Origin: Candidatus Omnitrophota bacterium
Lineage (GTDB): Bacteria; Omnitrophota; Omnitrophia; Omnitrophales; Aquincolibacteriaceae
Assembly: GCA_035352955.1 (NCBI GenBank)
Contig: DAOPYQ010000001.1
Span: forward strand, 101,536-165,535
Reading direction: 5' to 3'
Length of the DNA: 64,000 nucleotides
In this document: positions 3,464 to 50,482 of the stretch, piece by piece
How positions within the stretch are numbered: the stretch's first letter is position 1
Layout of the letters: every line of letters begins with the position of its first letter
Made by a program: the position numbers and the translations under genes
The notes under the pieces: model-generated
What the model was told of the DNA's origin: nothing
The model's database searches: none
What the model saw: the letters and a program-made list of their open reading frames with translations, nothing else

Positions 3464-3472
3464 AGGGTTTCG

Positions 3473-4822: not shown

Positions 4823-4823
4823 T

Positions 4824-5483: not shown

Positions 5484-6235
5484 TTGAGCTGAAATCGAAC
5501 CGGGAAATTCAGTTAATTCGGGAAGCCGGGGAGATTGCGCAGAAAGTTTTTAAAGCAGTTCAGCCGCGCGTGGTTGAAGGCGTGACCACTGACGAGCTGG
5601 ATGGTGTCGCGGAGAAAATTATCCGCGAGAACGGCGGACAGCCGGCGTTTAAGGGATATCGAGGTTTTCCGAAGACCGCCTGTATTTCGGTTAATGAGGA
5701 AGTTGTGCATGGGATCCCGGACGCAAGACGCCTCCAAGAAGGCGATATTGTTAGTTTTGATATTGGTGTGAAATTTAAAGGTTTTTTTGCGGATGCGGCA
5801 CGGACCTGGCATGTAGGCCGGGTCGGTCAGAAGGACAAAGATCTTATCCGGATCGCGAAAGAGGCTTTTGATCGCGGTCTGGATGGTTACAAACCGGGCT
5901 GGCGGATCGGGGACCTTTCCGAAACCATCCAGAAGTACATCGAGTCCCAAGGCTACCAGGTGGTTCGCGATTATGCAGGTCACGGGATTGGACGTGAGCT
6001 TCATGAAGACCCGCAGGTGCCGAATTACGGGAAGCCCGGGCGGGGCGCCAAGCTAGAACCGGGGCTTGTCCTCGCGATTGAGCCGATGGTGACCGCGGGA
6101 CATTATGCGGTTGAAACCCTCGCAAATGGCTGGACGGTGGTGACCAAGGACGGAAAAAACGCAAGCCATTACGAGGACACGGTCGCTTTTACAGAAAATG
6201 GAATTATCAATCTTACAGGGGATGAGGCTTCTTAA
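5480..6235 (+). CDS. map: Methionine aminopeptidase type I
   Basis: The 251-aa product contains conserved metal-ligand regions (FDIGV, GHGIGRELHEDP, EPMV). Its start overlaps the adk stop (ATGA). Confidence 0.95.
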   Translation: MIELKSNREIQLIREAGEIAQKVFKAVQPRVVEGVTTDELDGVAEKIIRENGGQPAFKGYRGFPKTACISVNEEVVHGIPDARRLQEGDIVSFDIGVKFKGFFADAARTWHVGRVGQKDKDLIRIAKEAFDRGLDGYKPGWRIGDLSETIQKYIESQGYQVVRDYAGHGIGRELHEDPQVPNYGKPGRGAKLEPGLVLAIEPMVTAGHYAVETLANGWTVVTKDGKNASHYEDTVAFTENGIINLTGDEAS

Positions 6236-8086: not shown

Positions 8087-9097
8087 ATGGGAATTCGTTG
8101 GAAAACATTTGAAATGCCGAAACGTCTGGAGGCGGAACAGAGCAGTTTGACGCCGACCTTCGGGAAGTTCGTTGCCGAACCGTTCGAACGCGGCTACGGA
8201 ACCACGATCGGGAACGCGCTTCGCCGCGTGCTGATCTCTTCGATCGAAGGGGCGGCTGTTACCAATATCAAGATCGACGGGATGCTGCATGAGTTCTCTA
8301 CGCTGGACGGAGTCCTTGAGGACGGCGCCCAGATCGTTATGAACGTCAAGAAGCTGGTTCTTCGCTATCATGGCAAAGGTCCCAAGAAGATCTATATTGA
8401 TGTGAAGAAGCAGGGTCCGGTGAAGGGTTCTGACATCCAGGCCGATGAGACCGTTGAGATCGTCAATCCCGATCTCGTGCTCTGCACCCTGACCAAAGCC
8501 GTTTCTTTCAAGATGGAAATGGAAGTGGGTCGTGGCCGCGGGTATGTGCCTGCCGAACGCAACAAGCAGGAAGATTCCCCGATCGGCGTCGTGACGGTGG
8601 ATTCGATCTACTCACCCGTGATGAAGGTGAACTTCTACGTCGAAGACACCCGCGTCGGCCAGATCACGGATTATGATCGTCTGATCCTTGAGATCTGGAC
8701 CAACGGATCCATGGGGCCGGAAGAGGCGCTTTTGTACGCGTCCAACATCCTTCAGCGCCATCTCGATATCTTCGTTAATTACGGAGAGCTTCCGGAAGAA
8801 GAAGAAGAAGAGGAAGAGCAGGATAAGGAATTCCTCGATATGGTGAACAAACCCATCAGTGAACTCGAACTCTCCGTCCGCAGCGCGAACTGCCTTGAGG
8901 CCGCCAGCATCAAAACGATCGGCGATCTCGTGCAAAAGACGGAAGCGCAGATGCTCAAATACAAGAATTTCGGGAAGAAATCCCTCAACGAGATCAATGC
9001 CATCCTGACCTCCATGGGGCTTCACCTCGGAATGAATCTTGAGGAGCGTATGCCAAACAAGCCGGCAGCTGTTGTGACTCCTGCTGCGGAGGCATAA
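8087..9097 (+). CDS. rpoA: DNA-directed RNA polymerase subunit alpha
   Basis: The N-terminal domain (NTD) reads ...[20 protein letters not shown].. and aligns with alpha subunits. I take the start at the second in-frame Met (MGIRW...), which is preceded by GGAGG; the track ORF starts 36 nt earlier, at 8051. The linker between the NTD and the C-terminal domain (CTD) contains a poly-Glu run, [10 protein letters not shown]. Confidence 0.9.
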
Positions 9098-20903: not shown

Positions 20904-23900
20904 ATGGTAAAAAAAGGCGTATTCCATAGAGAGGACTGTCTCCGGAAAGTGATCGCTTTCCTGACAGTCCTTTTCTTTTTAACGACCGACCTCTTCGGGC
21001 CTAAGGCCTATGCCTTGTCTGCCGTACCCAATTCTGCACGCTCCATGTCTTCCCATGTTCAGGAGGGGAACCTCACCGGCGCTCCTTTGACCTCTGCCAA
21101 GTTTTCGAAGGTCGCCATCCCCTCCGAACATGGAACTATCCTTGAAAGATTTCAGGGAAAAACGGACCGGACCGTAGTCCTGATCCAGGATGCACACGAC
21201 GTTTCAGACGCCCAGGAGAACATCCGGGCGCTGATCGGCTATTTCCGGAAGACGTACGGGATCGGCCTTGTGGCGCTCGAAGGGGCGGCGGGACCGCTTG
21301 ATGCGCGGATCTTCCGGAGTTTTCCTGACAAGGAACTTTTGAAGAGTGTTCTCAAGGAATACCATGAAAAGGGCGAACTGACCGGCGCGGTTTCAGCGGC
21401 CATCCTGGATGAGGAGGCCGGGGATTATTTCGGGATCGAGGACTGGCAGCTTTACGAAGAAGGTCTTGCGCTCTACCGTGCGGCATCGGAAAAAGAGCCG
21501 CAGCTTTTAAAAGCCCTGAATGCCGAGAAGACGAAGAACGACGAGGCCAAGAAGAAACTTTATTCCGCGGACCTTTTTGCGATCGACCGGGGGTGGGGAA
21601 ACTTTTCCAGGGACGGGAAGGGGCTTGCCGAGCTCCTCGGGAAATTGGTTGCCGTCCGGAAACCGGCGCAGGGTTCGGGATTGGCGGCCATCGTCGAAGC
21701 TCTCGGGCAGGGATCATTCGACGGCGCCGCGCTTATTGCCGAAGTCGAAGCGCTTGCGGGGAAGGTCCGGCGCGCGCTTCAAGCGGCATCCGGCAAGGAA
21801 CAGGAAAGGTTCAAGAAGTTCAACGCGCTTTATCAGGATTTCCGCAGCTCAAGAATCACGCCGCAAGCCTTCGCTCTTGCCATGGGGCCCTGGCTTCGGG
21901 AGCACAGGGTCCCTTACAAGGCTTCCGGCGCACTTGAGAGATGGGTCCGCAACCAGAAGATGATCGAATCGATCCGCGGCCCGGAGCTTTTTGCGGAGCT
22001 CAAGGCCTATGTGGCTGAAGTGAAGACCGTTCTCATGAAAACGCCGGAGCAAAGATCGCTCGATGAACAGGGCGAAACGATCCGGATGCTGACAAACCTT
22101 GCCCGCCTCGAATTAAGTGATGAAGAATGGCGGACTTTGTGCGCAACGTCACGGGTCTCTTTGGATGATCGATTTCAGGATCACCGGAAGTTCTATGAGA
22201 ACGCGGAGAGGCGTGACGAGTGTTTTTACCGTAATCTTTCGGAGCGGATCGGTTCTCAGGGCCGAGAAGCGTCCCGGACGGCGCTTTTGGTCGCCGGGGG
22301 GTTCCACACCGAAGGGCTGACGCGCCGGTTCAGGGAGAACGGGATCTCCTATTTTCTTGTCTCGCCTCGCACCGGAGACGCCTCCCTAAAAACGAATTAC
22401 CGCGCCCATATCCGGGGCGACGTTTCCTGGAAGGACCATTTCAAGGTCGAGAATGGCCGCGTCGATCTTTACGCCGCGTTCATTCGCGCGACGCGGGATA
22501 AATTGTTGCAGACGGAACGCGGCAACCGGGGCCCGGAAGTTTTCCCTCCCGTTACTGTCCGGTTACCCTCGTTTGCGGCGAAGGAATGGCGCGATCAGAT
22601 CATTCGCGACCTGGCCCGGGAAGGGAAGATCGCCGAATCGTACCGCTATGTCCGGTTCATGGATGAAACCGCGGAAGGGAGCCGCACCTTTCCGGGGCTT
22701 GAAAAAGTCGACCGTTTTATCGAAGCGCTTCGCCGTCTGGAATCCTCCGGCGCGTTGACGCGGGAAAATATCGTCCATCTTTTAAAGCCGTCGACCATTC
22801 TTTCCGCAGCGGCCGGTAATGCGATCCTCGGCGGGATGACCGTGCCGGCGGCGTTGTTAGTCCGAGAAGGCGGTAAGCGGGACGAGAAACGGGATGAGAA
22901 GCAGGAGATCTCGGCCATGCTTCCTCCCCAAGGCGGGATTGACCTCAGCCGTTATCTATGGTTTCGGTCGCTCCGGGTGCCCGAAATGTACGGGATCCAC
23001 GGGCAGGTGAACGCGCTCAAAGTGAAGGAAGCCGAGTTTTTTGATAGTCGCGAGGACCCGGTGGGCGCGTTCCTGGCTTCAGAGGGTTTTTTGGCGCTCC
23101 CGAACGGCCGTGATCGTCGGGCCGCGCTGACGGCTTTAAGTGAGATCTGGAAAGCTATCAGCAACATCCATTTTGCCAAGGACAGAGTTGTCCGAGGCGA
23201 GAGCGCGTACGATGCGGTACGGGTCCTTGCCGAATATTTAAATCATCCGTTTATCCGGGGGATCAAGGATGATGCGGCTCGCCTTAAATCTATCGAGATC
23301 TTTCGTGAGATTTCGGTCGATACCGTCCTGGAGCTTAACAAGGAAAAGGACTGGCTCGTGAAGCTCTTGGCCGGGGCGGCAACCGCCGGGATCCGGGACG
23401 CCGGGGAAATGGAAGAGTTTTTCGAGATCCTCCACCGGATCCTGAAGAATGTTCTCTTCGATCGGGTTCGCGGCGTAAATGGTCGCGATGATTCTTTCCG
23501 GGACCTCGACGGCATTTTGCGCGATCCCGCGTTTCTCCGGCTGGAAACGTCCGGAGAGCGGAGGGAGGCCCTTGCGATGTTCAAGCGAGTTCTTCCTCTC
23601 GCGCCGCTTTCGCTTATCGGGGTTATCGAATTCAGCGGTGATAGTCGTAGCGCCAGTGTCTTTTTGAAAAGTTTCCTGGCCTCGGACCTTTTTTCGATTC
23701 TCCCGGATTCCCGGGCACGGGAGTACGGTATCGCGCTCATGTCCCGCTTGTATTTTCATAAAGATCCCGAGATCGCCGCGATTGTCAGAAATATTTTTTG
23801 GGAATTCCGCAAAGAAGATGACCGGTTGCAGGAGATTTTCCATAGAGCTATGGCGGACATCGCTTCGCGGAGCGGCCGTGTGGATATAGAACGAGTCGTT

Positions 23901-26900
23901 GACGAAGCGGCTGAAAGTATCCGTCAGATGTTTGCGCAACGTGAAGCCCGTCAGACGCGCGGGGAACAGCAGGACGCGCAACGCGCGACGCAGGGCGCGC
24001 AACGAGAAGCGGAAGGGAAGTTGTGGATTGAAACGGAAAAGCCGGGGGACGGAAAACGGATGACGGATGGAGTAAAGCCTGGTTTTTCGAAATCCGCCAT
24101 CCGTCATCCATTATCCTCCGCCGAAGGCGACGGTCGCGCTGAATTACGGGTCAATCCCGACGAATATCCCTGGTTCAAAAGTCTGGAGCCTCTTGAGAAA
24201 ATCGGAATCCGTGACCAGTTGAATGATCTCAGTGAAAAAGAGAGGAAAAACTTCCCCAAAAGTTTTGGAAGGCTCCGGCGGTTCCTGAACTCGAAGGGAT
24301 TTTCGGCACTCCGCAGCGGACGTGAGCGATGGGAGGCGATCACGGGCCTCCAGAAGTTCTGGACCCGGCTGGTTGACAATTTCGGAGATGATTATTCCCG
24401 CAGCGTTAGAGCGACGAGGTTCGGCCTGTTTTTCGAGGCTTATATGGCAAGTCCGTTCTTTATGGAAATGGAAGGTCCCGCGGAACGTTTGAAAGCCCTT
24501 GCGATCTTTCACGAGATCGATTTCGAGACAGTGAACCATCTGGACAGGTACGAAGGCGGCATCCTGGAGATTTTGAACAAGTCCGTACGCGCAGGGATCA
24601 ACACGGCGCCGGAAAAAGTCGAAGTCGTCGAGATCCTTCGGCGGAGCTTCCAGAATATTCACCAGGACAGCTACAAAGAAAACGTGGATTTAAGGGAGGT
24701 TTTGGCGATCTTTTACGAATTTCTGGATGTGCCGGCGTTTTCCTCGCTTGCGACTCCGGGAGAACGGCAGGCCGCTCTTTCCGTTCTGAAAAACGCTTAT
24801 CCTACGAAGTCCACGCGGTATTCCTCGAAAGAACATTTAAACACGATCCTGGTGACCCGCGCGGCCCTGGTTGCTTTTCTGAAATGGGACTCTTTCAGGA
24901 ATCTTTCGAATCCCCAGGCCCGTCGTTATGGGTTAGCGCTTTTCGGGCGTCTTCTTTTTCCGCCGGAGACCCTTAAACGGGGGTGGATCTGGATCCCCAA
25001 AGGTTTACTGGATACGCGGGCGGCGGTCGCTGAAATTGTCCGGGAGGCTTTCCTTCATCCCGGAAAAAGCAGCGAAGAGGTTCTTAATATTTTTCGTGAG
25101 GTGATGGAACGCATGGACCGGGAGCGGGGGCAGTTCCAGCTCAAGAAGATGGTGGTGGGGGCTGTTCGGGCAGTTCTTCAGGCGTGTGATCATATCCTGG
25201 CCCGGAAAACGCGGGGAGAGCCGCAGGACGCGCAACGCGCAACGGACAACGTACAACGAGAAGCGGAAGGGAAGTTGTGGCTTGAAACGGCAAAGCCGGA
25301 TGAGGGAGAACGGATGACGGATGGAGTAAAGCCTGGTTTTTCGACATCCGACATCCGGCATCCGCAATCCGTAAGCGAAGACGGCGGCCGCGCGGAATTG
25401 CGGGCGAAAGAGCTTATCTTTCTGCCGTCCCTGAGCGTCATTGAACGCAGATTGAAAAAGGATCCGGGGTATGCGACCGAAGCGAATTTCGAACCGTTCC
25501 GCAAGGTCCTGGCCGGGGAAGATGCGGCGTTTAACCGGTTGTTGAACGTTCTGAGATGGCTTCCCCAAAAGACGATCGACGCGGCGGAAGGCGTTTGGAG
25601 ACTTCTCATGAAAGGCGCGATCGCTTTTCTGGCCATTTCCTTGGCGGGCGGACAGATCATTGCCATCCTGCTGGGAAGTTTCGGGGACCCCGTCTTGTTT
25701 TTCTGGCTCAAGAGCATGGGGGTTGCCGGTTTGATAGCCGGGGGAGCAGCGGTTATGATCAGGATTGCCAACGTTTTGCGTGAGAGAGGGTTGCCTTCGA
25801 TCCGCAAAAACATTCACGAGGCCAGGACCGTCAAATCTTTCAAGGCGCTCCGGCTGTTCGCACGGCAGCATTCCGTTTTCCGGTCCGGAAAATATCTGGA
25901 TTATGCCGGAACGCATCTCCGCTCCAGAAGCTTTGTCGTCACAAAAGCGGCATTTGGATTTTTAGATCAGATCCACGGGTGGGGTTTTCCCCCGGCATGG
26001 TATCCGGAGCTTTTTGAGGCCCTGAAGCCGTTCTTTTCCAAAGAGTTTACGGTTGACCGGGGAGTTCTGGCCGTTCTGGATCAAGCGTCTTTCCGGAAGG
26101 ATAAGGCCGAGGCGATCGCATTTGTCCGCCAACAGCTGGAGATGATGGAAGAGCAAGAGCAGGCCAGAAAAGAAAGAGGAACGGTTCAGCCGGTGCCCGC
26201 ATCGCAACGGCGCGGTTCCGGGAACGTGGAAGGCTCCCTGTGGGAAGAAAAATCGTTCCGCGCGGAGGTGCGGGTTGTGTCACAAACTTTTGCGGATGTC
26301 GTGGCGAAGATCCGCCAAACGGGTACTTTTGGGATCAATGTGGGCCTGGGACAGCCGCGCGAATTGTTTTCTGGTCTCGCGAAACAGGCTCCCGGAGAAT
26401 TTAATGAGGCGAACCTGGGAGCGCTGATCGGGGAGATCCTCGACCATTCGGGAGCCGAAGCTGAAGCGTGGTGGACGATCCTGAAAGCCGCGGACCCTTA
26501 TTTCGCGTTGGCTGGCGCCAAGGATCCCGCTTTAAGCCCTTACAGTCCCGCGAATCTTCGCCCGGTCCTGGAACGCGCGATCACGCAGGATCCCCCCGGC
26601 AAATACGTTCTCAACCTTTTGAAACGGTTTTCCATAAGAAACCAGGCCGCCTTTGATGAAGAGAATCTGCGTCATTGCATCGATCTTTTTGATCTGGAAC
26701 GGCGAGAGTTCTTTTTCCGGGTGAAGCCGTTTTTCAGTCATCTGCTGGTCTCCGGCATCTTTTTCACCGAGACGCAGCTGGATCCTTTTCTGGATAAGGT
26801 CATTGAGTTCTTTCTGAGGAGAGAAAGGGAGGTGGATCTGAGCTCGTTCCACGGTTGGATCACGGCAGTCGCCGCGGGAGTGCCGGGCGTTGCCCTTCGG

Positions 26901-29900
26901 GCACTTAGCCTGCTCTTTGCCATTGAGGTCTTTCCGGATTTTAATGACATGAAAACATTCGCTCTGAATCTTTTCTCGATTCTTGAAAAGCGCTACGGGC
27001 CACTGGACCGGGAGGCTATGGTGGACGCGGCAGAGGATCTTTGGAACAGCATGTTCCCGGCACCGCGCGTGCGGAATTTCTGGACTACAAAAACGAAAAG
27101 CGAGTTTGAGGCATTTGACAGCCTTTTCCGGGACTTTGCGGCCTCGCTTGATGCGGCAAGGACGGCAGGAAGTGAGAAGGCTTATAAACAGGCTGTCACA
27201 CAATTCAAATTGCAGCTGCATCATTATGCGGGACAAAGGCAGGCCAGGGTTACACGGGGAGAGCCGCAGGACGCGCAACGCGCGGCACAGGGTACGCAAG
27301 GGGTAACGGAAGGGAAGTTGTGGGCGGAGAGGGCCGAAGACGGTTTGCGTTCGGAACTTCGCGTGACGCATCCTGACATTCGCGAAAGGATGCGTGGCTT
27401 GAGGCAGAAGATAGAAAACCAGGTCGGGGATACCGGAGCGTTCGGAGCTTATGTCCAACTGCTGGATTTGCCCCCTGCCGCCGCGAGGTCCCAAGTCATT
27501 GGCGATATCAGTAAAGAGCTCAAGAAACAAGCGCGAGCGATCGCGGACACGGTTACGGATCCGGACCCCAAAGTCCAGGAAACGAAACAGAAGACTTTGC
27601 TCGCGAATCTGACAGTGCTTGCGGTCCTTCAGACCATCGACCGTAACGCGAGAAAGGCGGCTTCGACGGAGCCTGCGGGCGACAAGTTCTTCGGCCTGTA
27701 TGAGCGGGAAAGTTTCGTCGAAACGGCGTTCTTCACGCACATGACGGTTTCGCTGAGCAGTTTGCTGAAGGACCTTGATCCCGACTATATCGAGGATGAA
27801 GAACTGCGGCTTTTAACTTTCAAGATCCAGACTTACTTCGGGCTGGAAGCGTTTTTTAAAAGTTCGCCGAAGGTCCATTTCCGTCCGTGGTTTAGCAAAT
27901 TCCTGCTCAATTACATTCTCCGTGAACGTCCCGAACTCGCGCAGGCCCTGTATTCTCTGAATCCGGATCAGAGCCTTGTGGGGCTTCTCGAAGACTGGTC
28001 CGTTGAATCCAAGCTCAAATTCCAGGAGTGTCCGGAGATTACGATCCTGCGGGACATCGTGAAGCGCTACCAGTTCACGTTCCGGGATTTTGTCAGCAAG
28101 AAGAGCGGCCAGCCCTTCGATGAGAACGAGGTCTCGGAACAGTACCAGGGCGACCTTGAAATGCTCATGGAAGACGAAACCGTGCGCGGGCTGATCCAAC
28201 GGGATCTCCGGGGGCTCCAGGATATCGTGACGATCATGCTGACGGAAGGCCGGATCGAAGCGGAAAAGGCCAAAAAAGAAAAGGGCGGCAAGGACGACGG
28301 GTACGGCGAAGTTCGGTACATCCTGGAACAGATCATCCCGAAGGCCCTGCCGAAGATCCGGGAGAGGCTGAATAACGCGGACCCTCTCGAGATCCTTGAT
28401 GCGATGGCGAGCATTGTGCAGGTGGCGAACGGGGAATTCTCCGCGTTGATGGGCAAGTTGCTTGGGGCGCACCCGCGGATCGGGGACAAGTATTCCCGTC
28501 TGATCGCGGGCAACGTCCAACGCCTCAAGCAGATCGGACTGATCCTTGTGGCGGTCGGCGAGACCGGATTTGACCAGATCCCGTTCGATAAACTGGTCGC
28601 ACGCTACAAGATCGTAAAAGGGAGCGACGCCGAAGGCCGGCTTCTCGAGATCATCGCGAACATCGCCCGTTCCGCGAAGGAAGGGACCGCCGGACTGATC
28701 GAAGAAACCTTCGATCTTTACAGCCAGGAGGCCGGCGAGACGTTGGACGACCTGAACAAACTGCTCCGCGCGTTCAATTATTTCGTCAGGATCGTCAATT
28801 TTCACTATGAATACGAAAAACTGGTCCTTGCCGGCGAGGTCGGCCAGATCAATAACGAAACTTATTTCGTGAGCTTGCGCGACCTCAAAAAGACCCTGCA
28901 GATCGTACGGCGCAACTTCAACGCAGGCATGGACATCAAGGAAGCTGCGGCCGATGCGGTGAAACGCCGCTATTACAACCGTCTTAGTCCCGAGGACCGC
29001 GACCGCGTGCGGGGCCTTATGATCTCTCACAGGATCATCCATCCCCACGACGAATTGAAGTTCAGTTATGAGGTCCAAGGATACGAGGTCGGCAGCCGCG
29101 AGATCGTGATCACGGAGAAACGGCCGCCGTATCAGATGCAAAAGAAGGACCGGGTGACGGGGCAGCTCTACATGGAAGAGATCCAGGTCGGGAAGCCTCG
29201 AGAGGTCATGCGTATTCAGTTTAAGGAACCGCTGGAACCCGGAGACGTCGATCCGGACATCATCTTCAACGAAACGACCTGCCGGAATCTGTCGGCGGTG
29301 CTTGAGGCGCTGGAGGTCAAAAACGGCGAAAAATTCAATCCCGTGCTGGAATTCGGGACCACGGCCGGCGGCAAAAGCACGATCGCCAAGCTCGCGGCGA
29401 AGGTCCTCAGGGTCGGTTACACCCGCATCCAGATCAACGAACGCACCGACGAGTTCGATCTGTTCGGGTCCTTTCAGCCGTTCGAGATCAACATGGAGCT
29501 GGGCGATGCGATGGAGCGGATCCGGGAAGCTCTCGATCGCGGGGAATACAACGCGCTTGAAGATGTCCTGAGCCGCATGTTGACGGGCGGAGAGGGGAAG
29601 TTCTGGGAACGGTTCTTCAGCGAAGAAGAACGCCGCGAGATCCTTGCGGGACAGGAGGGACTGGACCTTCACGAAGCCAAACGTCTGGCGATCCAGAAAC
29701 GTGTCCTCGCCCGCGTCGAAAATATCCTCGCGCAGGCGCGAGAACTTTTGCCGTTGGAACATGCGCCTGCCCAGGACCCGAAAGCGGCGGAACGGATCCA
29801 ACTCGTCAAGGCCATGGCGTATATGCTCAATCATGAAGTCGGGCTCCGTTACAAGAAAGGGCGTTTTCTCGAAGCTTACGAAAAAGGTGACCTGATCCTT

Positions 29901-32900
29901 CTTGACGAGGTTAACCTTGCGAACGAGGAAATGCTCGGCGTGCTCTACCAGCTTCTGACGATGGGGTATCTCCAGCACGGTGGCAAGGTCGTCGAACCGG
30001 CGTCCGGCCAGAAAGCCCGTATCCTGGCGACGGCGAACCCTTCAAGCTACGGCGGTCGCAACCGGATGAGCGAGGCGTTCATGAACCGGTTCGAGATCAT
30101 TTATATCGATTCGATGACCGATGAGGAAATGGCCGAGATCCTGGAAGGGACCGTTCATAAAGACCTGATCGCTTCCGGCCGGTATGCGGCGGCGGACTTC
30201 AAGAAACGGGAGGGAGAAACCCCTGCCGAGTGCCGGCAGAGGCTTGACCAGATCCTGCTGAAAGAGATCGGAGTGACACGTTACCATCTGACGCTTTTGG
30301 CCCGGGTCCAGGACAAGATCAACGGCGCGCTCCGCGGCGGGAAATTCATCGGGATGGGTGCCGACGCCGATTATGTTTTTACGATCCGCAATTATTTCAA
30401 TTTATACAAGGACCAGATGGCCCGTAAAAAGCAGGGGCAGACGCTTAGTCTCGAGACCTGGCTGCGCGAAGCCTTTATGGAATACGGGAACGTCCTGATG
30501 CGCACGAATACGTATCTCCTGAATCAGCCGGAACTTTTGAAGGAAGAAGCCTCTTACAAGACGCTTCGCAATATTTTCGGGCTCACGATCGGGGATCCGA
30601 TCCTCGACCTTCCGTCGCTTCAGCATCCGCGCGAAGGCCCTGCCGCGGCGGACGGTACCCCAACGGTGCGGTCCACCCTGCGGCCCGAAAATGCCCATGA
30701 AGCCTTTGATGAACTGGTCGCGAACTGGTTCCGCAAGATCGATTACGAATATGACCGGGCGACGCATACGCTCCGGATCGACGGGCTTACGATCACCGGC
30801 CGGACCCTCGAGGAACGGAAACTGATCGAAGAGCTTATCGAAACGGAGTCCACCAAATACAGCCAGATCGCGGTCCTGAAGGCACTGCTCCTGAACGAAC
30901 CGCTTCTGAACGTGGGCCAGTCCGGCGGAGGAAAGACCGAATCGATCGGGGATATTGTCCAGCGCCTCGGCCGCAAGTACGTCACGGTTTCCCTCGGAGA
31001 CGCGACGCTTGAAAGCCTGCTTGGGAACATGGAATGGAATCCGCGGGAAAAACGTTTTGTCTACGTTCCGGGGATCCTCGTCAAAGCGATGCAGGACGGA
31101 TCGGCGCTCGTGCTTGAGGAACTGAACATGGCGAAGTCCGGCGTGATCGAGATTCTGAACGAATATTTTGACGAAGGGACCTTCACCAATCCTTTTACGC
31201 TCGAGAAGATCAGGGTCCATTCTGATTTCCGGTTGTTCGCGACCATGAATCCTGTGCAGGGTATGACGGGGCAGAATGGCGGACGCGTGAGCCTTTCTCC
31301 GGCTCTCCGCAACCGTTTCCGCGAAGTATGGGTGCCGCACGAAAAAACGGATGCGGAAATGCGGGAGATCCTTCAGGGGCGTTTTGCTCAGAAGAATATC
31401 CAGGTCGGGGATGTTTCGATGAAGAAGATCCTCGCGTTCTTCCACGCGTATCAGGAAGCGTTCCGTTTCCGCGGCGAAGCGGCCTACTATACGAGCCCGC
31501 GCGACCTGACGCGTATCGTCCGGATCATGTCCTATCTCATCACCGTCTGCCATATGGATGAAGAAAAAGCCCTCTCCCGAGCGGTGCGGCGCGTGTACTT
31601 TGCCAAGATCGCGAAAGAGGAGGACCGGAACGATGTCCGCAAACTGATCGCCGAGGCAAAGATCCCGTCCGGCGAGATCCGGGCGCCTTCCTACCGGTTT
31701 TCCGAGGACAAACGTTTTCTTGAGGCCTACGATGGCCAGGAACTTGTCGCGCGTTTCGATGTGACCGCCCACCGGTCCCGCCTAGAAAAGATGATCGAGG
31801 ACGAGATCGGTGAAAACGATCCCGGCATTTCCGGAGAGGCGCTCCGCTCGCAAACGAAGTCCAAACTGGAACAGGCACTGAAAGAAGCGACGCTGGTTGA
31901 GAATGCGCACACGATGGAGAATCTGCTCGGGCTCATAGAGGCCGTTGCGATGGACGATCAAGATGTCCGGCAGGGAAAATTCAACCCGGTCCTTCTTCTT
32001 GGCGAAACCGCAGGAGGGAAGACCTCGCTTGTGAAATATCTTGCCGTGGCGATCCTCGGACAGGGGTACACCCGCATTCAGATCAACGAACGCACCGATG
32101 AGCTGGACCTTTTCGGTTCGTATGAACCGCGTGAAATGAAGATCGGAACGGACGATGCGGTCCGGATCGTCCAGAACGCCATCGAAGAAAAAGAGTGGGT
32201 CAAGCTCAAGAAAGCCCTGCAGATGTTGAGAAAGGGGTACGCCGGCGAGGATGAATTCGACCGGTTGCAGGATCCCGAGCGGATTTTCGAGCAGCTTGCG
32301 GCAGAGGAAACGGCCGCCCGTGAAGAGATCTTCCTGTATCTCCGGCAGGCCGTCTCGGATGACGCTGATCCCCAGAGTCGTGACGCGGCGATCCACCGGC
32401 TCAAGGTGATCGCGTATCTCGTGAAAAACGGGGCGATGAGCGTGGAAATGGAGTTCCGGGAAGGGCGGTTCCTTTCCGCCCTGAAACGCGGGGATTTTAT
32501 CGTGCTCGACGAGATCAATCTTGCGAGCGAAGAGTCGATCGCCGTCCTGTACCAGTTCCTCACGCTCGGTTTTGTGGAATATTACAACAAGGACGCCAAA
32601 GATGAGAACGGCAATCCCCACCCGCGCGTCGAGAAGATCTATCCGCCGGCGGGAATGAAACTGGCCGCGACCGCGAACCCGTCCGGTTACGGCGGCCGCA
32701 ACCGTCTCAGCGAAGCGCTCATGAACCGTTTCGAGATCCAGTACCTGCAGAACATGTCGCCGGAACAGATGAGCGAGATCATTATGGGAGAAAGCGCCCG
32801 CAAAAGCGTTTTCGCGAAAAATACGCGGTTGGCCGGCACGGTCCTGAAACTCGCCAAGCTTCAGCGGCAGATCAACTTGACCCTGGGAAGCGACGCTAAT

Positions 32901-35900
32901 CCTTTTCCGTCCGTCGGTTCGGGGCAGACGCAGGGATATCTGTTCACGCTCCGGGACCTGAAGCGGATCATGCGGAGCGCTGAAGAGATCCTTAGCCAGG
33001 GGAGCCGTTCGCCACCCGAGGCCCTGGTGGTCCAGCAGGCGTACCTGGAATATCTCGGCGTGCTCGGCCGAAGCGACGACGAAGTGAAACATCTTCTCCA
33101 GATCTTTAAATTCCCAGAATTTTTCCCGTCGTTCGATCCCGACCAGCTCAATCTCTCGTTCGAGGAAACCCGGAACGCCCGCGGCCGGAAGGTCATCCGG
33201 ATCGGCGGTTTCGAGATCGAAGAGCGCGACTATGACGGCAAAGGACCCTCGAATGAAGCGGACGTCATTGAAGCGCTTGAGGAAGGTCCGCTGACCAATT
33301 TGATCCGCATTGCGATCGTGAAAGGTCTGTTGGACCCACGAAGCCCCGTGATGGCGGTCGGCCAATCCGGCGGCGGGAAAACCGAAATGATCGGGGATGT
33401 CTGCCGGCGGCTCGGATGGAAATACCGGTCTGTGTCGCTCGGGAACGCGTCGCTTGAAAGGTTGATCGGAGGCTATGAGCGGGATCGGGAAACGAAGATC
33501 TTCCGGTATATGGTCGGCGAACTGGTTCGGGCCATGGAGGACGGCGCGGTCTTTGTGCTTGAAGAAGCCAATATGGCGAGTTCGGGGCTCGTGGAAATCC
33601 TGAACGAATATTTCGATGAGGGAACATTCACCAATCCTTTGACGGGGCGGAAGGTTGTGATCCACAAGGATTTCCGCCTGTTCGCCACGATGAATCCGGA
33701 GGTCGGTGTGACCGGGTCGAATGCCGGCCGCGTGGGATTCTCCCCGGCGCTCCGGAGCCGTTTCAAGGAGGTCTGGGTACCGCACGTCAAGACCTCCGAC
33801 GAGACAAAGCGGATCATTCGTAAAAAATTCACAAATCAGAAGATGAAGGTTTCCGACAAGACCGTTGAACAGCTTTATTCGATCTACGAGATGTTCCGAA
33901 CCTACGTGGAAGGATTCAATGATGAGACCGGTCTGTTGCATCCCGCCCGCATCGGCCAGGTGAACAACGAAGGCTACTACACCAGCTTGCGCGATATGGG
34001 AAAGATCGCGGACATCATGGTCCAGGACATGCGGCGTGGCGTTCCAGAATCCGAGGCTCTCCGCTATGCGGTCAAGCGTATCTATTATCTCCGGTTAAAT
34101 TGCGAGGAGGACCGAAAGGTCGTGCGGGAAGAGATCCTTGCCGGTCTGGACATGACGCCGATGGAATACCGATGGAGCCTGGAGGGGGCCGAGTATGTGA
34201 TCCGTCGCGGTCCGATCGAAGTGGCCCGCGTGTCCGCCGAGCTTCTCAAGAAAAAACATTTTGTCCTGACGGGTCCCGCGAAAGAAGAGATGGGTTTTCT
34301 GATCGAAGCGATGAGCCGCGGCCCCGGGTTCAAGCGGTCGTTCAATCCTGTCATGCTTTTCGGTGAAACGAGCGGTGGCAAGTCGACCATGATCGAGATC
34401 GCCGCGCACATTTTCAGGAAGAAGTTCAGACGTATCCAGATCAATCAGCGGACCGACGAATACGATCTCCTCGGAAGCTATCATCCCGTCGAGATGAAGC
34501 TCAGCCTGGCGCGCAGCCTCGAGGTCTTCCAGGAGAACCTCCGGAAGAAGAACTATTCCAAGATCGCGAAAGCGCTCCGGGTCTTGAAGAAGGACGTCCG
34601 GCTCTCGCTTCATCTTACGGAAGATGAGAAAGTGAGCGATGCCGAACTTTTCCAGCGCTTCCTCGACCAATACATCCTGCCCGGCGTGAAGCGAGAAGAC
34701 TCTACCGTCATCGAGGAGGCCCGTAAACTCGCGGTCCTGATCCATAACGGAGTGGCCGGTATCGACCTGGTCCACCAGACGGGATTTTTCCTTGAAGCCG
34801 TCGGGAACCGGGACGAAGGGATCCCGGGCCGGATCGTGCTTCTTGATGAGGTCAACCTTGCCAACGAGGAATCCATCGGGCTTCTTTACCAGATCCTCAC
34901 GCTCGGTTATATGGAATACCAGGGCAAGCGTATCTATCCCGGCGACGGCTTCCAACTCGTGACGAGCGGCAATCCGTTCACCTATTCCGGCCGCAACCGG
35001 ATGAGCGAGGCGTTCATGAACCGGTTCGAGATGCATGTGATCCCGGAGATGACGCCCCAGGAAATGGTCCAGATCCTTTGGGAAGGTTATGATCTGCAGG
35101 CCAAAGGGATCTCGCAGAACGCCTTGCAGGAGATCGTCGCCCTGCAGGTGAGGATCCATGAAGAAAGCATGAAACACTCATTCGATGGGTTCAATCTGGA
35201 CAACACTTACCGTTTCACGCTCCGCAACCTTGAGAGGATCGTCGAAGACGCACTGAAGCGGAAAACCGTCGAATCTTCCCGGAGCGCCGACGAGTGCCTC
35301 TGGGTCGAGGCCTACATCGAATACGCCGGGCTGCTGAGCCAGTCGAACGAGGATGACAACGCCGAAAAGAACAATATCGCGACGCTGAAAGGCCTTTTCC
35401 ACGACACCTTGCTCCGGGAAGGCTATGCCGTGCTGGGCAAGAAGATCGAATCGGGCAAAAAAGAAGAGCTGGAAAAACTTCTCGGCGTGCTCGGGATCCT
35501 GACTGAAAAAAAGACGGTCGACGATATGAAAGCGCAACTTAAGGAGATCCTCGCCTGGTCCCTTGGCGGCAATCTCGGGGCGACCTTGCAGGTCCTGAAG
35601 CTGGTGGAGGCCGTCACGGGCAAGCCTTATCAGCCGTGGTATCCGGACAGGGATCCGCTTTTCATGGAATTCCGGAAGATGGCCGTGACGCAGGAAGGGC
35701 AGACCGAGTGGGCCGAACTCGGAGGGGTCCGTGTCGCGAAACTTTCGGCTTCCGAGATGCTCGAAAGTTTTCTTAAAGAATTCGGGACCGATACGGAAAG
35801 CGGGCTTTTGAAAGGACCGAACGGAGAGGCCTTGGAGGCTTTCGACGGGAACAGCCAGAAGTATATCTTGCAGCAGATCCAAGGTATTGCCGTCCGCCGG

Positions 35901-38900
35901 CTTAAGCAGGAAGGCGGGAATCTCAAGGATCTGTTGCGTCAGGAGGTCCAGAAATGGATCGCCGGGCAGCTGGAAGGTTTCCGTCTGCCGCCCGGTTATA
36001 TCGAAGGGCTCTTGCGCAAACATTTTTACACGCAGGCGGAAAGGATCGAACAACTTGTCGAATTGAGATCGACCCTGATCCCGCGCATGCAGATCATGAA
36101 AGGTTTCCGCGACGGTGGCGTGGTCCAGACGGAGGACACCGAGGGCAATCCGGTCGCGATCCACAAGTCGCGCCCCGTCAATGAGATCGGGCAGTCCGGC
36201 GGAGGGAAGACCGAAATGGTCGCCGACATCGCGCGGGAACTGAACTGGCCGTACATGTCGGTCGCGCTCGGCGCCGCGACCGTGGAATCGCTCGTGGGCG
36301 AATTCGTTCTGAACGACCAGACGGGCGCTTTCGAATTCCGGAAAGGGATCCTTGTTCGCGCGATGGAAGAGGGCGCGGCGCTTGTGCTCGAGGAACTCAA
36401 TATGGCCGAGAGCGGCGTGATCGAGATCCTGAACGAATATTTCGATCGCGGGGTCATGACGATCCAGGGCCGCAAGATCTCGGTGAAGATCCACCGCAAT
36501 TTCCGCCTGTTCGCGACGATGAATCCGACGGAAGGCCGTACCGGGAAGAATGCCGGCCGGATCCCGCTTTCGCCGGCCTTGAGGAGCCGGTTCCGCGAGA
36601 CATGGGTCCGCAGCGAGCGCACGAAAGCGGAGCAGTACCGGATGGCGCTTGGAGGCATTCGCGATCTTGTGAACGGTTTGATGGAACGCGGGATCCCCGA
36701 GGAGTCCGAGGACGCCATGGGGATCCTGGAAGAAAACCTGACGCGGCAGAAGATCGCCGAAAGGTCCGGTCTCCGCAATCTTCCCAAAGGGAGGGACAGT
36801 ATCGAGGACGGGGTCACGGTCGAAGCGGTTCGCCCCGTCACGGCGCGCCCGGCCGCGCGTTCCCCGTCCGCACCTGCCGTGAGCATGGCCGCTCCGGCCG
36901 GCGAGCCTGCCGTCAAGATCCCGACCAAAGGAGAATGGGAACGGCTGCACCTGGAGGAGAGGAAAAAACTTTATGAAGACACGTTCTCGATCATTACCGG
37001 AAAAGCGGACATCAAACTGGTGGCCGGCAAGGGCTGGTCGTGGGCGCCTGCCAGTCATGTTCTGACTTACGATGAAAAAGACATTGAGAACCTGAGCCTG
37101 AATGCTCTTCTCGGCGTCGGGATCCATGAAGCCATGCACCGTATCGGGACGCGGTACCTTTCACTTTTCTGGGAGTTTTTCGACGAGCACGGAATCGAGA
37201 GCCGCGTTTTCAATACGCTCGAGGACGGGCGCATCGAGAACTGGGGGCGTTTCCTTTTCGGCGGGGCCGCCACGCCTTTACGCGCGACTAATGACGAAGT
37301 CGTGTTCGGGAAAGTAAAAGACGTGGACGAAATGGTGGAGCGGTTTGTGTTCCGCCAGAAGGACAAGGAGGGCAACGTTGTCGAACTTTCCTACACGTCC
37401 GCGATCATTAACTTTTTTCTCTATCTCGGCAAACGGGGTTCGGATGCCAACGCTCCCGAAGTCATCGAAAAGTTCCTGAAGGCTTTCGAGAAACGGGACC
37501 CGCAGCTTCGCAGGGACCTCGCGGGGCTGCTTCAGGCAGGGTATTTTGGAGGCGGGCGCGACGAGGATATCCTGAACCCGCCCAACCAGAACCGGGTGTC
37601 GGGCGTTTTCTCTAAACTTCCGATGAAAAGGAACGAATTCGGGACTTACGAGTTCGACGCCAACCCGGCGGGAACGACGGTCGAGAATCTGGCGATCGAA
37701 CAGGGGATCATCATCCGCGAATGCATCATGCCCATTGTTTATAAATGGGCCGTCAAGGATCTTGCGGACGTTCCTTCGGGAAAAGGGAAAAAAGGTAAGG
37801 GCGGAAGGGAAGTTATCCCGCGGAAATCTTCCGGGGGTGGCGGGGAAGATGACAGCGATGGGGACGACGGGGGCGAAAGCGATGGGGAGAGTGAACCCGG
37901 CCAACCGGCTGATGGATCCCCCAAGGATTTCAAGCCTGGAAAGCCGGCAAAGGGCGGTCAGCCCGTGAAGCCGATGACCCCGGCGGAGTGGAAAGCGATC
38001 TGGGACAAGCTCTCCAACGAAGACAAGAAAAAGTTGACGGACAAGATCGACAAGGGCGTCGAGCACAAGGCCCAGGACCGTACGGCCAAGGATTCCAAGG
38101 ATTACCAGAAGGCCCAGCAGGACGCCGAGATCGGAAAGCCGATGAGCGAGCGCGATCGTTTGATGGGACTCCTCGGGCGTATGATCACGGAACTTTCGGG
38201 GTACCTGCGCGACATCATCCAGAATTCCGTCCGTCCGAAAGAGATCACCGGTCTCAAGCGCGGACGTATTGACGTCCGGCGTCTGATCAACTCCATGGCG
38301 CGCGGATTCACGGACATGCGGTTCTATAAGCAGCGGATCCTTCCGCAAAAAAAGAACGTTAAGTTCACGATCATCGTGGACGAGAGCGGCAGTATGTCCG
38401 GCATGGAAGAACCCGGCAAGAAAGTCGAGATCAATACGCCCCAGAAAGGGTACCGGACGCTGATGGGCGTGACGCTTCTCATGGAGGTCCTGGAATCGCT
38501 CGGGATCGATTTCGCCGTCCGCGGTTATCACGACACGACTTGTCTCCACAAACGGTTCAAGAACCAGAGGATCCCTTCGGACAAGAAAGACCAGTACCTG
38601 GAAGCGGGGCAGGATGCCGTTCAGGACGGCTATACGACGAGGCGGGACAAGGAAAGTTTGATCGATCTTCTCCGCCAGAGCATCGGTCGCGGCGGGAACA
38701 ACGAAGGGCCGGCGCTGGAAGCCGCGATCCGGGACGCCGGGGAGGCGGGCGGTGAGCGGCACTATATTATTATCCTGACGGATGGCATGGGCGATGAAGA
38801 GGCGATCAAAAAGCATGTCGCTCAGCTCCGGCAGGCGAATGGTATGGTGAACGGGACCAAGGTGGAATTGATCGCCATCGGCCTCGGGAACGATTGCGAA

Positions 38901-41900
38901 TCGGTGATCAACAATTACGGCGGACGATACTCGATCTGGCTCAAGGATGACGAGGTCCAGAAACTTCCGGCCGAACTCAAACGCATTCTCCAGGAAGTGA
39001 TCCGCGGTGTTTTTCAACCCGGCGCGCCCGGCGCGAACCGTTTTGAGAATATGGCCCGGGGCTTCAGCCTTGCCGGTGTGGCCGGCATGGTCGGCGCATC
39101 CCGCGTCCGTTCGGAACTTCGCGCTTCCGAAAAGGTCCCCTCTCTCTCCGGCGCCGAAGACGAGGGGCTTGGCGAAGATCAGAAAACATGGTTCCGTTCT
39201 TTGCAGTTCAGGAGTCCGGAGGAGCGTTCGGAACTTCTCAAGGTGATCCGGGACAGCCATTTTTATTATGAAGATCTGGTGGGCGAGACCCCGGGGGGAA
39301 GCCCTGATTTTCAATACAAGTTCGGGGATGGTCTGCCGATCCTTCAAACGTTTTGGGAATCGGAATCTTTTACAACACTTCCGGATTCGCGAGAAAGGAT
39401 CCTGGTCTTGAGGCTCTTTGACGGGATTTTGAATACCGGGGATTATTTTATGATCCAGCAGGCTGCCAGGATCCTGGAGCGTTTGGTGGGTCCTGAAATT
39501 CTCGGAAAGGTTACGGACCCTCAGGAAAGGGTCCTCGCCCTGGAAGTGACTGCGGATATCCTGGTCCAATCGAGCGTTTACAGTCCGTGGGGTAATACAA
39601 TATCCCGAAGTGAAACCGTTATGGATTCTTTCCTGTATTTTTTAAGCACCTATTATCCGGAGATAAATAAAAATTTCGAAAAGAACGCGGAAACTTGGGG
39701 CTTTTTCCGGGAAATCATCCGTGCGGGGTATGAGCCCGAGCGAAGGTTTGAAGAAACCAGCAGGGCTTTTGGCATGCTGGGCAAGTTAATGGACTTGGCA
39801 GGTTTTGAGCGGGTTGGCGGACCGGAAGCGAAAAAGAGGGTTCTGGGCGTTGTGAAAGATATCCTGGTTTATTCGCAGCCAGGATCCCAAGAGGCGTTCG
39901 AAGCTTTAAGGACCTTGCTTGGAGGTCAAGGTTTCGGCTCGATCCAGGATCCGGACGAACAGGGAGTGGTGCTTGAGATCCTTTGCGCCGTTCCGTTTCT
40001 GGCCCGCGAGCGGGCGGACGCGTACTTCCAGAGATTCGATCAAATGCTTTCATGGGCTTCCGGTGGGGCCGCGAGCTTTCATGAAAAACGTTTTAGGGAG
40101 ATCCTTCTCGAGTTTTCTTCCCGGCCCCGGTCTGCCGAAGCGGCAGAGAACGCCTGCCAGAAGATCATCCAGCTGGCAGATCAAAGCGCAGCCCGTGAGA
40201 CACGAGGGGAACAAAGCCCGGTTCCCGAGCCTCAAGCCCTGCTTGCCGGCAGGCAAAGTTCTGTTCTTGAGAATAAGGAAGGGAAGTTGTGGTTTGAAAT
40301 TCCAACGACGGATGACGGAGATCGGATGGCGGAGGACGGACGGCTAAAGGCAAAAGGTTTTTCGACATCCGACATCCGTCCTCCGCAATCCGTAAGCGAA
40401 GATGTCAGCCGCGCAGAGCGCAACGCGCAACGCACAACGAAAAACGGAGATTCAACGTTGACCGTTGCGCGTGGCACGTCGAACGCGGACGAAATCCGCC
40501 GTGCCGAGCTCCGCATTTCCGGGATTCCTATGATCCCTCTTGACCGTTACCAATGGTTTAATGCCGATACAAATGAAGAGCATAAGGCCGAGCTTCGCCG
40601 GAAAGTCGCCTTGCTTGAAAACGAACTTCGCCGTTATCAGGGGGATGAACTTAGAGAAGCTCTGCGTTGTTTCAAAGACTGGTTCGCTTCAAAGGATTGG
40701 ACCGCCGCCGGGGTGGATTATGAGCAACGATTAAAGATGCTGGAGATTGCGGTGAACCTGCAAATCCATGTTTATCCGGGAATGGTCTATAGTGATGGAA
40801 GGCCTGCTTTTGACCATGAGAAGCTGAAGCCTTTCTCGGCTTTTCTGAAAAGCGACGCCTTTCGGCAGATCGTCGATCCCGCCGAGCGGCAAAGGGTGTT
40901 CGGCGTGCTCGCGGACATTCCTCCGCGTGCCGGGGATGCTGCGCCTAAAGCTTTCAAGGCCCTGGAAGCGTTTCTTGGCAGAGCAGGGTTTTCCGGAAGG
41001 GTGGACCCTTCGGAAAGAACGCGCATGCTGGAGGTGTTCCGGCAAACGGTGCTGGATATTTCGAATAAAAATGTGAAAGGTGATGCGTTTGCGGGGCTTG
41101 AAGCTCTGAATCGCATCAAGGCCGTTTCGGATCTTGCGGATCCGGCCAGCTTAAAAAAGATATTCGATCTTTTTTGGGAGATCGGCCGCACGCGGGATTA
41201 CTGGAAATGTGACTCTTTCGAACCGTTGGCGCAATTTCTCGCCTCGGATGCAGTACGCGGGATCAAGCATTTCGAGGATCTGTGCGCAATTTTTGACATT
41301 TGCAAAACACTTGTTGATTTAGGGATCAAAAACCGGGCGGCGGCATTCTGGGGTCTCGAAGGGTTTCTCAGAACGCAGGATTTTTCCATGCGGGAGGACG
41401 CGGTTCTTCGGGGGATTCTTTTGAAAGAATTCTCCGGGATATTTGCCCTTGTCGGGAATGTTGGAGGTTACTATTCGGATGAGCGGTCCGGTGCCTTGGT
41501 CGCTTTGGGGGATTTTTTTAACAGAAAATGGGGATTTGAACGGCTCGAGACGAACAGAAAGGTGATCGATCTTTTGGGAATGATCTTGCCCGGTCTGGCG
41601 GATGAAGATGTGCGCGGATGGATCGAAGCGTTTGGCCTGGATATTTCCGCGATCAGCCATACGGAATCCCTGAAGGGAGAGCCTATGGTAAATATCCTTC
41701 AGGAATTTTCTCAAGGAGCGGAAAGCGTTACGGGAGCTGAGGAACGCAAGGCCTTGGCGCAGGCGGCGGCGGAGAAGATCCGGGCGTTGGCAGATCATGC
41801 CCAGGCGCGCGCGGCGCGCGGGGAAGCGCATGACGCGCAACGCGTCGCGAACGGCGCGCAACGAGGAGTCGAAGGGAAGTTGTGGAACCAAACGGCGGAG

Positions 41901-50315: not shown

Positions 50316-50380
50316 GCCTCGGTTCATTTTTGTCAATTCCCTCACAGGGAAATCCAGTTTTCGGGTCATTTTCAGCGCCT

Positions 50381-50409: not shown

Positions 50410-50482
50410 CCCGATTTGCTTTTTAAGGAAAATGGGTTATTTTTTATTAGTAAAATCATTTAAAAAGATTTAGAGGACAAGG

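Follow-up and report, generated by a model that had tools for sequence, protein, structure and literature searches.

The DNA analysed here is a stretch of 64,000 nucleotides from a Candidatus Omnitrophota bacterium (GenBank assembly GCA_035352955.1, contig DAOPYQ010000001.1, positions 101,536 to 165,535 of the forward strand), hereafter the window, numbered from its own first nucleotide. Two giant open reading frames (ORFs) follow each other on the plus strand: ORF1 codes for 9803 amino acids, and ORF2, which begins 167 nt after the ORF1 stop across an AT-rich spacer (50316-50482), runs beyond the end of the window without a stop codon and codes for more than 4500 amino acids. The first 655 or so residues of the two proteins are 40% identical (E 2e-127), a similarity that, at the level of sequence, is far beyond chance. 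A family hidden Markov model (HMM) finds exactly two copies of this N-terminal domain in the six-frame translation of the window (ORF1 residues 78-665 and ORF2 residues 63-644), in agreement with the first-pass annotation of this DNA, which described both proteins as having a signal-peptide-like start followed by a conserved domain found nowhere else in the window. Here, we argue that this domain, which we call the head, is very likely a remote homologue of the TraB/GumN/TIKI proteins and probably acts as an exported hydrolase. The ORFs and the parts of the head are as follows.

20904-50315, plus strand: ORF1, giant, 9803 amino acids
20904-21014, plus strand: putative signal peptide of ORF1, residues 1-37, with the positive n-region MVKKGVFHREDCLRK, the h-region VIAFLTVLFFL and the AXA-like site AYA before LS
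21099-22868, plus strand: ORF1 head domain, residues 66-655, comprising a predicted alpha/beta core, a helical lobe and C-terminal helices
21180-21197, plus strand: LIQDAH of ORF1, residues 93-98, end of predicted strand beta1; H98 invariant, D96 conserved at 99% and Q95 at 96%
21267-21287, plus strand: LVALEGA of ORF1, residues 122-128; E126 invariant, 28 residues past H98 and placed by hhalign on the Glu of the 'LE' in TraB/GumN motif 3
21432-21443, plus strand: GIED of ORF1, residues 177-180, last predicted core strand ahead of the helical lobe; E179 conserved at 99%
21444-22256, plus strand: predicted helical lobe within the core of ORF1, residues 181-451, of variable length in the family
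22203-22217, plus strand: AERRD of ORF1, residues 434-438; R437 invariant, aligned with the invariant Arg of the TraB/GumN 'RN' motif
22284-22310, plus strand: LLVAGGFHT of ORF1, residues 461-469; G465, G466, F467 and H468 invariant, aligned with the second GxxH of TraB/GumN
22428-22616, plus strand: C-terminal family-specific motifs of ORF1, WKDHFKVENGRVD..AFIRATRDKLL..WRDQIIRDLA, residues 509-571, with no TraB/GumN counterpart
50483 to beyond 64000, plus strand: ORF2, giant, from its ATG, with no stop in the window, more than 4500 amino acids
50483-50599, plus strand: putative signal peptide of ORF2, residues 1-39, ..YRRFIAALTVCFFIF..SQGFA before GT
50660-52411, plus strand: ORF2 head domain, residues 60-643
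50741-50758, plus strand: LIQDAH of ORF2, residues 87-92
50828-50848, plus strand: LVAAEGA of ORF2, residues 116-122; E120 lies 28 residues past H92
51794-51808, plus strand: AEKRD of ORF2, residues 438-442; R441 lies 25 residues upstream of H466
51857-51883, plus strand: LLVAGGFHT of ORF2, residues 459-467

The domain had originally been delimited at 21100-22860, which corresponds to residues 66-652 of ORF1, and its quoted motifs are all present, among them WKD[HY]F..[NE/RD]GRVD, found in both heads. Two of those described as invariant, GLVA.EGAAG and AWRDQIIRDLA, differ between the copies (GIGLVALEGAAG as against GVRLVAAEGAAT; EWRD.. as against AWRD.., in which WRDQIIRDLA occupies residues 562-571 of ORF1 and 556-565 of ORF2). 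The two His motifs, said to be about 330 residues apart and both of the GxxH type, are separated by 370 residues in ORF1 and 374 in ORF2, and the first of them is in fact Q-D-A-H, with Gln in place of Gly.

The head is not confined to this genome. An exhaustive profile search, counted in cluster representatives, returned 8790 at E<=1e-3, of which 4533 reach E<=1e-30; in the best 150, the match begins near residue 1 of proteins of 500-8000 amino acids, and QDAH, in a single copy per protein, lies between residues 12 and 112 in all 145 of the listed members that carry the motif. A word-indexed search recovered just 10 relatives, several of them from Candidatus Omnitrophota metagenome-assembled genomes (MAGs), and a scan of one genome per species gave 154, of which the best 80 loci are considered from here on. 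All the named loci among them belong to Candidatus Omnitrophota, with several paralogues per genome and up to about 10 loci from a single MAG. One head-bearing contig (L003, CAZUJQ010000110.1) comes from a MAG that bears the label 'uncultured Planctomycetales'; this reflects an error of binning or naming, or else is the sole hint of the family beyond Omnitrophota. The ORF nearly always runs past the 1300 amino acids of downstream sequence fetched (i.e. exceeds 1900 amino acids), and the shortest intact head-bearing ORFs are of about 1560-1930 amino acids. The first-pass annotation had proposed looking for stand-alone homologues; no head of about 650 amino acids standing alone was seen in this set. 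Short ORFs at four loci (L017, L048, L061 and L075), considered as stand-alone heads, were rejected, as they look like frameshifted or truncated copies. In the large and giant proteins of Omnitrophota, the head is an obligatory N-terminal module, with several paralogues per genome.

What follows the head is diverse and mostly without annotation. Behind the head of one relative (P0006) lies a PrmA-like methyltransferase domain (PF06325, residues ~700-1006), and in another (L033:5762-9760) metallo-beta-lactamase and cNMP-binding domains are found; at six other loci, the next 1333 amino acids gave no Pfam match. No conserved upstream partner gene was found in the 80 loci, which show only local synteny with housekeeping genes (uvrC, ychF, murJ). 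At four related loci (L008, L032, L038 and L071), the tail of a giant ORF lies 80-320 nt upstream of the next head and, together with the 167 nt spacer in the window, this indicates that head-bearing giant genes are often arranged in tandem. Plasmid and phage collections held no homologue of the head, and Pfam and NCBIfam scans of both window proteins did not recognise it. In the literature on Omnitrophota giant proteins we found no description of the domain; according to one such paper, these proteins' N-terminal regions 'generally lack identifiable domains'.

The N-termini of both proteins show the features of a Sec signal peptide cleaved by signal peptidase I, that is, a positively charged n-region, a hydrophobic h-region of 10-15 residues and small residues at positions -3 and -1 (ORF1 ..KVIAFLTVLFFL..AYA before LS; ORF2 ..FIAALTVCFFIF..GFA before GT). 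When 124 complete N-termini (family members and the two window ORFs) were scored by crude hydropathy and a regular expression, an h-region was present in 122, a net positive n-region in 121 and an AXA-like site, at a median position of about 30, in 115. Such a pattern points to a cleavable Sec signal peptide more than to the signal anchor of the first-pass annotation, with cleavage deduced from these features. An extracytoplasmic head would fit what is seen for TraB/PrgY, TIKI and ChaN.

Conservation was assessed in an alignment of 147 family representatives clustered at <=50% identity. Fourteen residues are invariant in 147/147 (H98, Q104, E126, F430, R437, G465, G466, F467, H468, P488, Y499, W509, F526 and W562, in ORF1 numbering) and a further ten are conserved at >=97% (D96, A97, A103, E179, R528, R531, R563, D564, D587 and E588). 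Across the family, R437 sits 25-31 residues ahead of H468, whereas the distance from QDAH to GGFH ranges from 308 to 544 residues, so that the region between these motifs is variable in length. AlphaFold2 models of the two heads, of reasonable confidence (predicted local distance difference test, pLDDT, 78 and 84; predicted template modelling score, pTM, 0.69 and 0.76), agree on the order of elements: a beta-hairpin with QDAH at the end of its second strand, a helix, a strand ending at E126, three short helices and the GIED strand, then an all-helical region of about 270 residues, a long helix with R437, a strand leading to GGFH, a helix, a strand (GISYxLV) and family-specific helices. In both models, the conserved residues lie at the C-terminal ends of predicted strands.

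The proposed TraB/GumN/TIKI relationship was examined with hhalign, against an alignment of 16 TraB/GumN sequences made of the YbaP set and seven plasmid-borne proteins from other phyla and classes (sources Rhizobium, Aeromonas, Aureibacter, Lysinibacillus, Stenotrophomonas, Sphingomonas and Proteus); the four templates that were checked are strong members of PF01963 (E 1e-61 to 1e-85, 208-286 bits). The head core (residues 65-185 joined to 426-545, with the helical insertion cut out) aligned to it over 111-131 columns with a probability of 85.8% (P 5.4e-6). With separately built alignments and the tool's own hhalign, the value was 75.1% (E 2.5e-5) and the alignment was unchanged. The signal was also present in two uncut fragments, N-terminal (residues 65-200, P 2.2e-4) and C-terminal (residues 426-492, P 2e-4), both of which align to TraB in the head's own order, and in the full uncut domain (P 1.9e-3). 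Against the real score of 46.6 for the core, the reversed template scored 11.6; the best of 100 column shuffles reached 21.8 and the best of 100 ten-column block shuffles 29.5. The order of the alignment was kept with the non-enterobacterial templates alone (C-terminal fragment, P 1.2e-4) and with the enterobacterial ones alone (N-terminal fragment, P 1e-3). A narrow alignment of YbaP sequences, all at least 67% identical (effective number of sequences 2.2), was too shallow a template and gave only P 0.005-0.02, over the LEGA..PDK stretch; the decisive step was the addition of the seven diverse proteins.

In the alignment, the TraB/GumN invariants E174, R246, G269 and H272 receive head residues E126, R437, G465 and H468. 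The strand of motif 3, ending in L-E at E174, is matched by LVALEGA..FPDK, which falls on kpV..LE..Qi..l..lp. The invariant Arg of motif 4, an R-N about 25 residues ahead of the second His, is matched by R437 in an R-D, a pair also found in the Lysinibacillus TraB protein. Motif 5, V-G-x-x-H followed by G..L...G-Y-x-V, is matched by LLVAGGFHTEGL..L...GISY, on fVaVGAgHL.G..l..L..qG. As for motif 1, a strand ending in G-x-x-H in which G47 and H50 are invariant, the second strand of the head's hairpin ends in Q-D-A-H, in which the His is invariant and the Gly is replaced by Gln. The detectable similarity spans TraB motifs 3-5, the C-terminal half of PF01963.

Several results weigh against this assignment. 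The QDAH segment could not be aligned by hhalign to TraB motif 1, and E126, 28 residues past H98, is placed on motif 3 and not on the Glu of motif 2 (E76, 26 residues after the first His); because of this placement, the catalytic equivalence of H98 and E126 is drawn from their spacing and not from the alignment. PF01963, PF05139 and PF04187 gave no match at Pfam thresholds, and NCBIfam none, even with consensus sequences; for PF01963 (gathering threshold 26.8 bits), neither the window proteins nor the family consensus produced a match even at E<=10. The core consensus gave just one match, to PF05139 (E 0.012, 15.8 bits, profile positions 100-229 of 358), below its cut-off of 26.4. Searches of PDB sequences with two head profiles returned noise only. 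The HH probabilities are 75-86%, none above 95%, and the best one needed the insertion to be cut at boundaries that we chose. Aligned by hhalign to 120 erythromycin esterases, the head falls into catalytic register (H98 on H46, E126 on E74, R437 on Arg/Lys and H468 on the second His of AHNxH), with a score, 17.6, that lies inside the shuffle noise (up to 21.7).

Structure searches bear on the same question. Foldseek gave no significant match in any library, and long helical proteins dominate the lists. In the PDB, the ORF1 model found EreC at rank 5 (E 0.41) and ChaN at rank 27, and the ORF2 model ChaN at rank 28, with EreC outside the top 50; in BFVD, a 'TraB family protein [Marseillevirus]' was ranked 5 (E 0.098). 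All of these superfamily matches have E >0.04 and TM-scores <=0.25, which also counts against the assignment. Each library holds roughly 350,000 structures and the superfamily a handful of entries. The recurrence of three of its branches (EreC, ChaN and viral TraB) among the few alpha/beta matches is suggestive at the level of the models, though it does not amount to a formal test. The best BFVD matches of the ORF2 head, ranked above the Marseillevirus protein, are two uncharacterised proteins, A0A7D3V598 (Fadolivirus) and A0A3G5AC46 (Hyperionvirus), with E 0.04-0.06, the highest probabilities of the list and 450-520 matched columns; judging from the models, these may be two-lobed relatives. 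Other folds were considered and rejected: a calcineurin-like metallophosphoesterase (DxH...GD...GNHE...GHxH), for which motifs II and III are missing and no Foldseek match was found though the fold is abundant in the PDB; an arginase/HDAC (DAHxD), in which the second Asp is unconserved and which gave zero Foldseek matches; and a P-loop/SIMIBI NTPase, suggested by weak Get3 and FtsY matches of the second model, which lacks a Walker A motif.

The similarity to TraB/GumN could be spurious, in which case the head would have an alpha/beta-plus-helical fold that is new and has no relation to the TIKI superfamily. In favour of this reading are the lack of any database HMM or PDB sequence match and of any superfamily Foldseek match at E <0.04, the restriction of the aligned part to the C-terminal half of PF01963, and the fact that about 25 hhalign comparisons were made before a significant one emerged. 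The P value of 5e-6, however, withstands a 25-fold correction for multiple testing, no shuffle approached the real score, the order of the alignment is the same for two non-overlapping fragments and two disjoint template subsets, and three branches of the superfamily appear among the top Foldseek matches of two libraries. We consider a spurious similarity quite improbable. The first-pass annotation had left the relationship open to being overturned by profile or structure searches; these have been run, and remote homology to TraB/GumN/TIKI emerges from them as strongly favoured by the sequence comparisons. By Pfam's own criterion the head lies outside PF01963, and its architecture is different; it is best called a two-lobed, obligately N-terminal TraB/TIKI-type form specific to the large and giant proteins of Omnitrophota.

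The nearest of the known systems is TraB/PrgY/GumN itself (PF01963; E. coli YbaP, E. faecalis PrgY, Xanthomonas GumN). The two share significant profile similarity over 110-130 columns, an N-terminal beta-hairpin with x-x-H at the end of its second strand, and an order of elements: an hhhLE strand, helices with a P-D motif, R-[ND]-x2-[FMW] and hhhh-[AV]-G-x-x-H-x-x-G..L...G-[IY]-x-[YV]. Moreover, TraB/GumN members are typically extracytoplasmic behind a signal peptide, as predicted for the head. They differ in that the head has a single Glu-bearing strand, 28 residues past the His, as against two in TraB (motifs 2 and 3), has QDAH for GxxH, carries an inserted helical lobe of 270 residues (range about 200-440) and about 170 residues of extra C-terminal motifs, and is never a stand-alone protein of about 260 residues but always the N-terminus of one of 1500 to more than 9800.

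The erythromycin esterases EreA-D and Bcr135/136 (PF05139; PDB 6XCQ/6XCS) resemble the head in having an alpha/beta major lobe and a helical minor lobe, inserted between the Glu strand and the part with the Arg and the second His. The EreC set E47, H50, E78, R261 and H289 would correspond to head residues Q95/D96, H98, E126, R437 and H468, with spacings of 28 and 25-31 residues. The His-Glu spacing of 28 residues is shared by EreC (H50/E78), RRSP (H3902/E3930) and Bcr135 (H85/E113), and in EreC R261 precedes H289 by 28 residues (PMC7979712, PMC6254334). These esterases are cytoplasmic and stand-alone, unlike the head. RRSP (DUF5, of MARTX toxins) and TIKI1/2 (Wnt proteases) are TIKI-fold hydrolases of the 2His/2Glu type within, or acting on, very large secreted proteins, and work outside the cytoplasm of the producing cell, where the head is likewise predicted to be. 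Neither shows detectable sequence similarity to the head; RRSP is an internal cargo whose release depends on a separate cysteine protease domain, in contrast to the constant place of the head at the extreme N-terminus, and TIKI differs in being metal-ion dependent and anchored by glycosylphosphatidylinositol (GPI) or a transmembrane segment. ChaN (PF04187, PDB 2G5G), matched by Foldseek to both models over 114-152 columns (E ~2), is an exported lipoprotein with, as modelled, the same core fold, which differs from the head in binding haem, in not being known to be catalytic and in lacking the helical lobe.

These comparisons suggest how the head might work. A Sec-type signal peptide would export it to the periplasm or the cell surface, where it would act as a hydrolase that belongs, with strong divergence, to the TraB/PrgY/GumN branch of the TIKI/erythromycin-esterase/ChaN superfamily. 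The core would comprise, in order, the QDAH hairpin (H98), a helix and a strand leading to E126, the R-D motif (R437), and a strand leading to GGFH (H468), split by the helical lobe of about 270 residues. If EreC and RRSP are taken as guides, the general base that activates a water molecule would be H98, kept in place by D96 or Q95. E126 together with H468 would serve to position this water or else a metal ion, the oxyanion would be stabilised by R437, and a substrate-binding lid would be formed by the helical lobe, as by the minor lobe in EreC. The activity itself is deduced from the invariance of the residues: H98, E126, R437 and H468 are unchanged across divergent paralogues with unrelated downstream content, which argues that catalysis has been retained. 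The activity would most likely be that of a peptidase, since the nearest branch (TraB/PrgY/TIKI) and RRSP act on peptides, and less likely that of an esterase.

A head of the TraB/TIKI fold could also have lost catalysis and serve as a membrane-proximal module with a structural, ligand-binding, or export or anchoring role. Not all members of the superfamily are enzymes, a point against an active head: ChaN, which recurs in Foldseek for both models, binds haem, and PMT C1/C2 is inactive. Such a loss would be in keeping with a first motif that is without the canonical Gly and that hhalign could not match to its TraB counterpart, and with the large C-terminal motifs (WKDYF..., WRDQIIRDLA), for which there is no enzymatic precedent; constant fusion at the N-terminus would suit a role in targeting or assembly. 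Yet the four residues His, Glu, Arg and His show no change at all in the 147 divergent representatives and across many paralogues per genome, and inactive relatives such as PMT have lost them (PMC6254334). We regard a loss of catalysis as unlikely, and an exported, active hydrolase as the probable nature of the head.

A short motif found throughout the proteins that carry a head raises the question of what such an enzyme might cut. R-[SA]-E-x-R occurs 904 times in 153 head-bearing family proteins (475,394 amino acids, about one copy per 525), against 26 copies expected from composition, a 35-fold excess. When Asp is also allowed at position 2, ORF1 has 14 copies (2.2 expected) and ORF2 has 9 (1.05 expected). 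The first copy lies a median of 115 residues past WRDQ in the family, and the columns of ORF1 E661 and R663 are Glu and Arg in 92% of members, with the consensus RSExR. The copies in the window, listed with the pattern R-[SA]-E-x-[RK], are as follows.

22878-22892, plus strand: RDEKR of ORF1, residues 659-663, first copy, directly past the head and behind residues 628-655, which are predicted to be disordered
ORF1, plus strand: residues 659, 1078, 1496, 1786, 2149, 6069, 6533, 7001, 7600, 8259, 8592, 8861, 8891 and 9517 (e.g. nucleotides 22878-22892 and 24135-24149)
52565-52579, plus strand: RSESR of ORF2, residues 695-699, first copy past the head
ORF2, plus strand: residues 695, 1305, 1645, 2252, 3147, 3558, 3863, 3897 and 4374

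With the exception of the first post-head copies and of one close follower at three sites, the window copies end a conserved linker of 60-90 residues, ...EGKLWxET..DG.RMTDGVKPGFSTSDIRHPxSxSEDGxRAELR. The motif also occurs in the C-terminal ends of neighbouring giant ORFs and is rare in the housekeeping proteins of the window (1 in 6452 amino acids), which are encoded on the plus strand of its first 20.7 kb (ribosomal proteins, secY, adk, map, rpoA, mfd, a SurA-like protein, pdxA, ksgA, enolase and an FtsB-like protein). From its distribution, the motif may be a processing or boundary signal.

The body of ORF1 has features of its own. Between about 28900 and 38600 (residues ~2660-5900) it contains seven AAA_5 (dynein/midasin-type) ATPase modules with midasin-type lid domains, then a MIDAS-like DESGSMSG motif (VWA-like), a bacterial midasin-like arrangement, and beta-propeller repeats further downstream. 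Candidate transmembrane segments are few (ORF1 residues 1568-1586, 1604-1622, 1989-2007 and 8389-8407; ORF2 residues 2603-2621, 3615-3633 and 3650-3668), and whether the weak third segment is real decides to which side of the membrane the AAA+ ring of ORF1 would be assigned. The minus strand within ORF1 contains many long antisense ORFs of up to 763 amino acids (e.g. 27813-29978, 31782-33941 and 37278-39569), most likely by-products of the codon composition of the giant gene and not genes.

The combination of a short boundary-marking motif and a universally conserved, protease-like head suggests a polyprotein-processing system, in which the giant ORFs would be polyproteins and the head a maturation endopeptidase that cuts at R-[SA]-E-x-R, in cis or in trans; candidate cleavage stretches would be ...SEDGSRAELRVN... 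and the post-head RDEKR site. The excess of the motif, its place at the end of most inter-module linkers in the window and directly behind the head, its rarity in housekeeping proteins and its presence at the ends of neighbouring giant ORFs all agree with this proposal. So does the fact that just five residues are conserved family-wide, as is typical of a protease site; in addition, the sequence-specific endopeptidases include both TIKI and RRSP (PMC6254334), and every family member listed has the head as its one conserved N-terminal module. Cleavage, however, is purely hypothetical, as a reading of the sequences. With a crude transmembrane predictor, the density of the motif is equal before and after the predicted segments, that is, on both inferred sides of the membrane, while the head is predicted to be outside; the AAA+ modules and the MIDAS-like motif of ORF1 should be cytoplasmic; other peptidases (C39 and S8) have been proposed for processing (bioRxiv 10.1101/2023.11.21.568195); and a structural cap or binding site is another possible role of the motif. 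We consider cleavage by the head at this motif quite unlikely. If it did take place, a single translation product of 10,000 to 100,000 amino acids would be turned into a set of exported or membrane-bound modules.

Whichever substrate an active hydrolase head would act on, it is the first widely shared, and probably catalytic, part of thousands of large Omnitrophota proteins. A Pfam family can be defined from it, and it provides a handle by which the true starts of these genes can be recognised in fragmented assemblies. At about 600 amino acids, it is a testable enzyme candidate small enough for expression and, together with the R-S-E-x-R motif, it makes the processing of giant proteins into pieces directly testable. 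As a very likely remote homologue, it would extend the TraB/TIKI superfamily to a two-lobed, obligately fused form.

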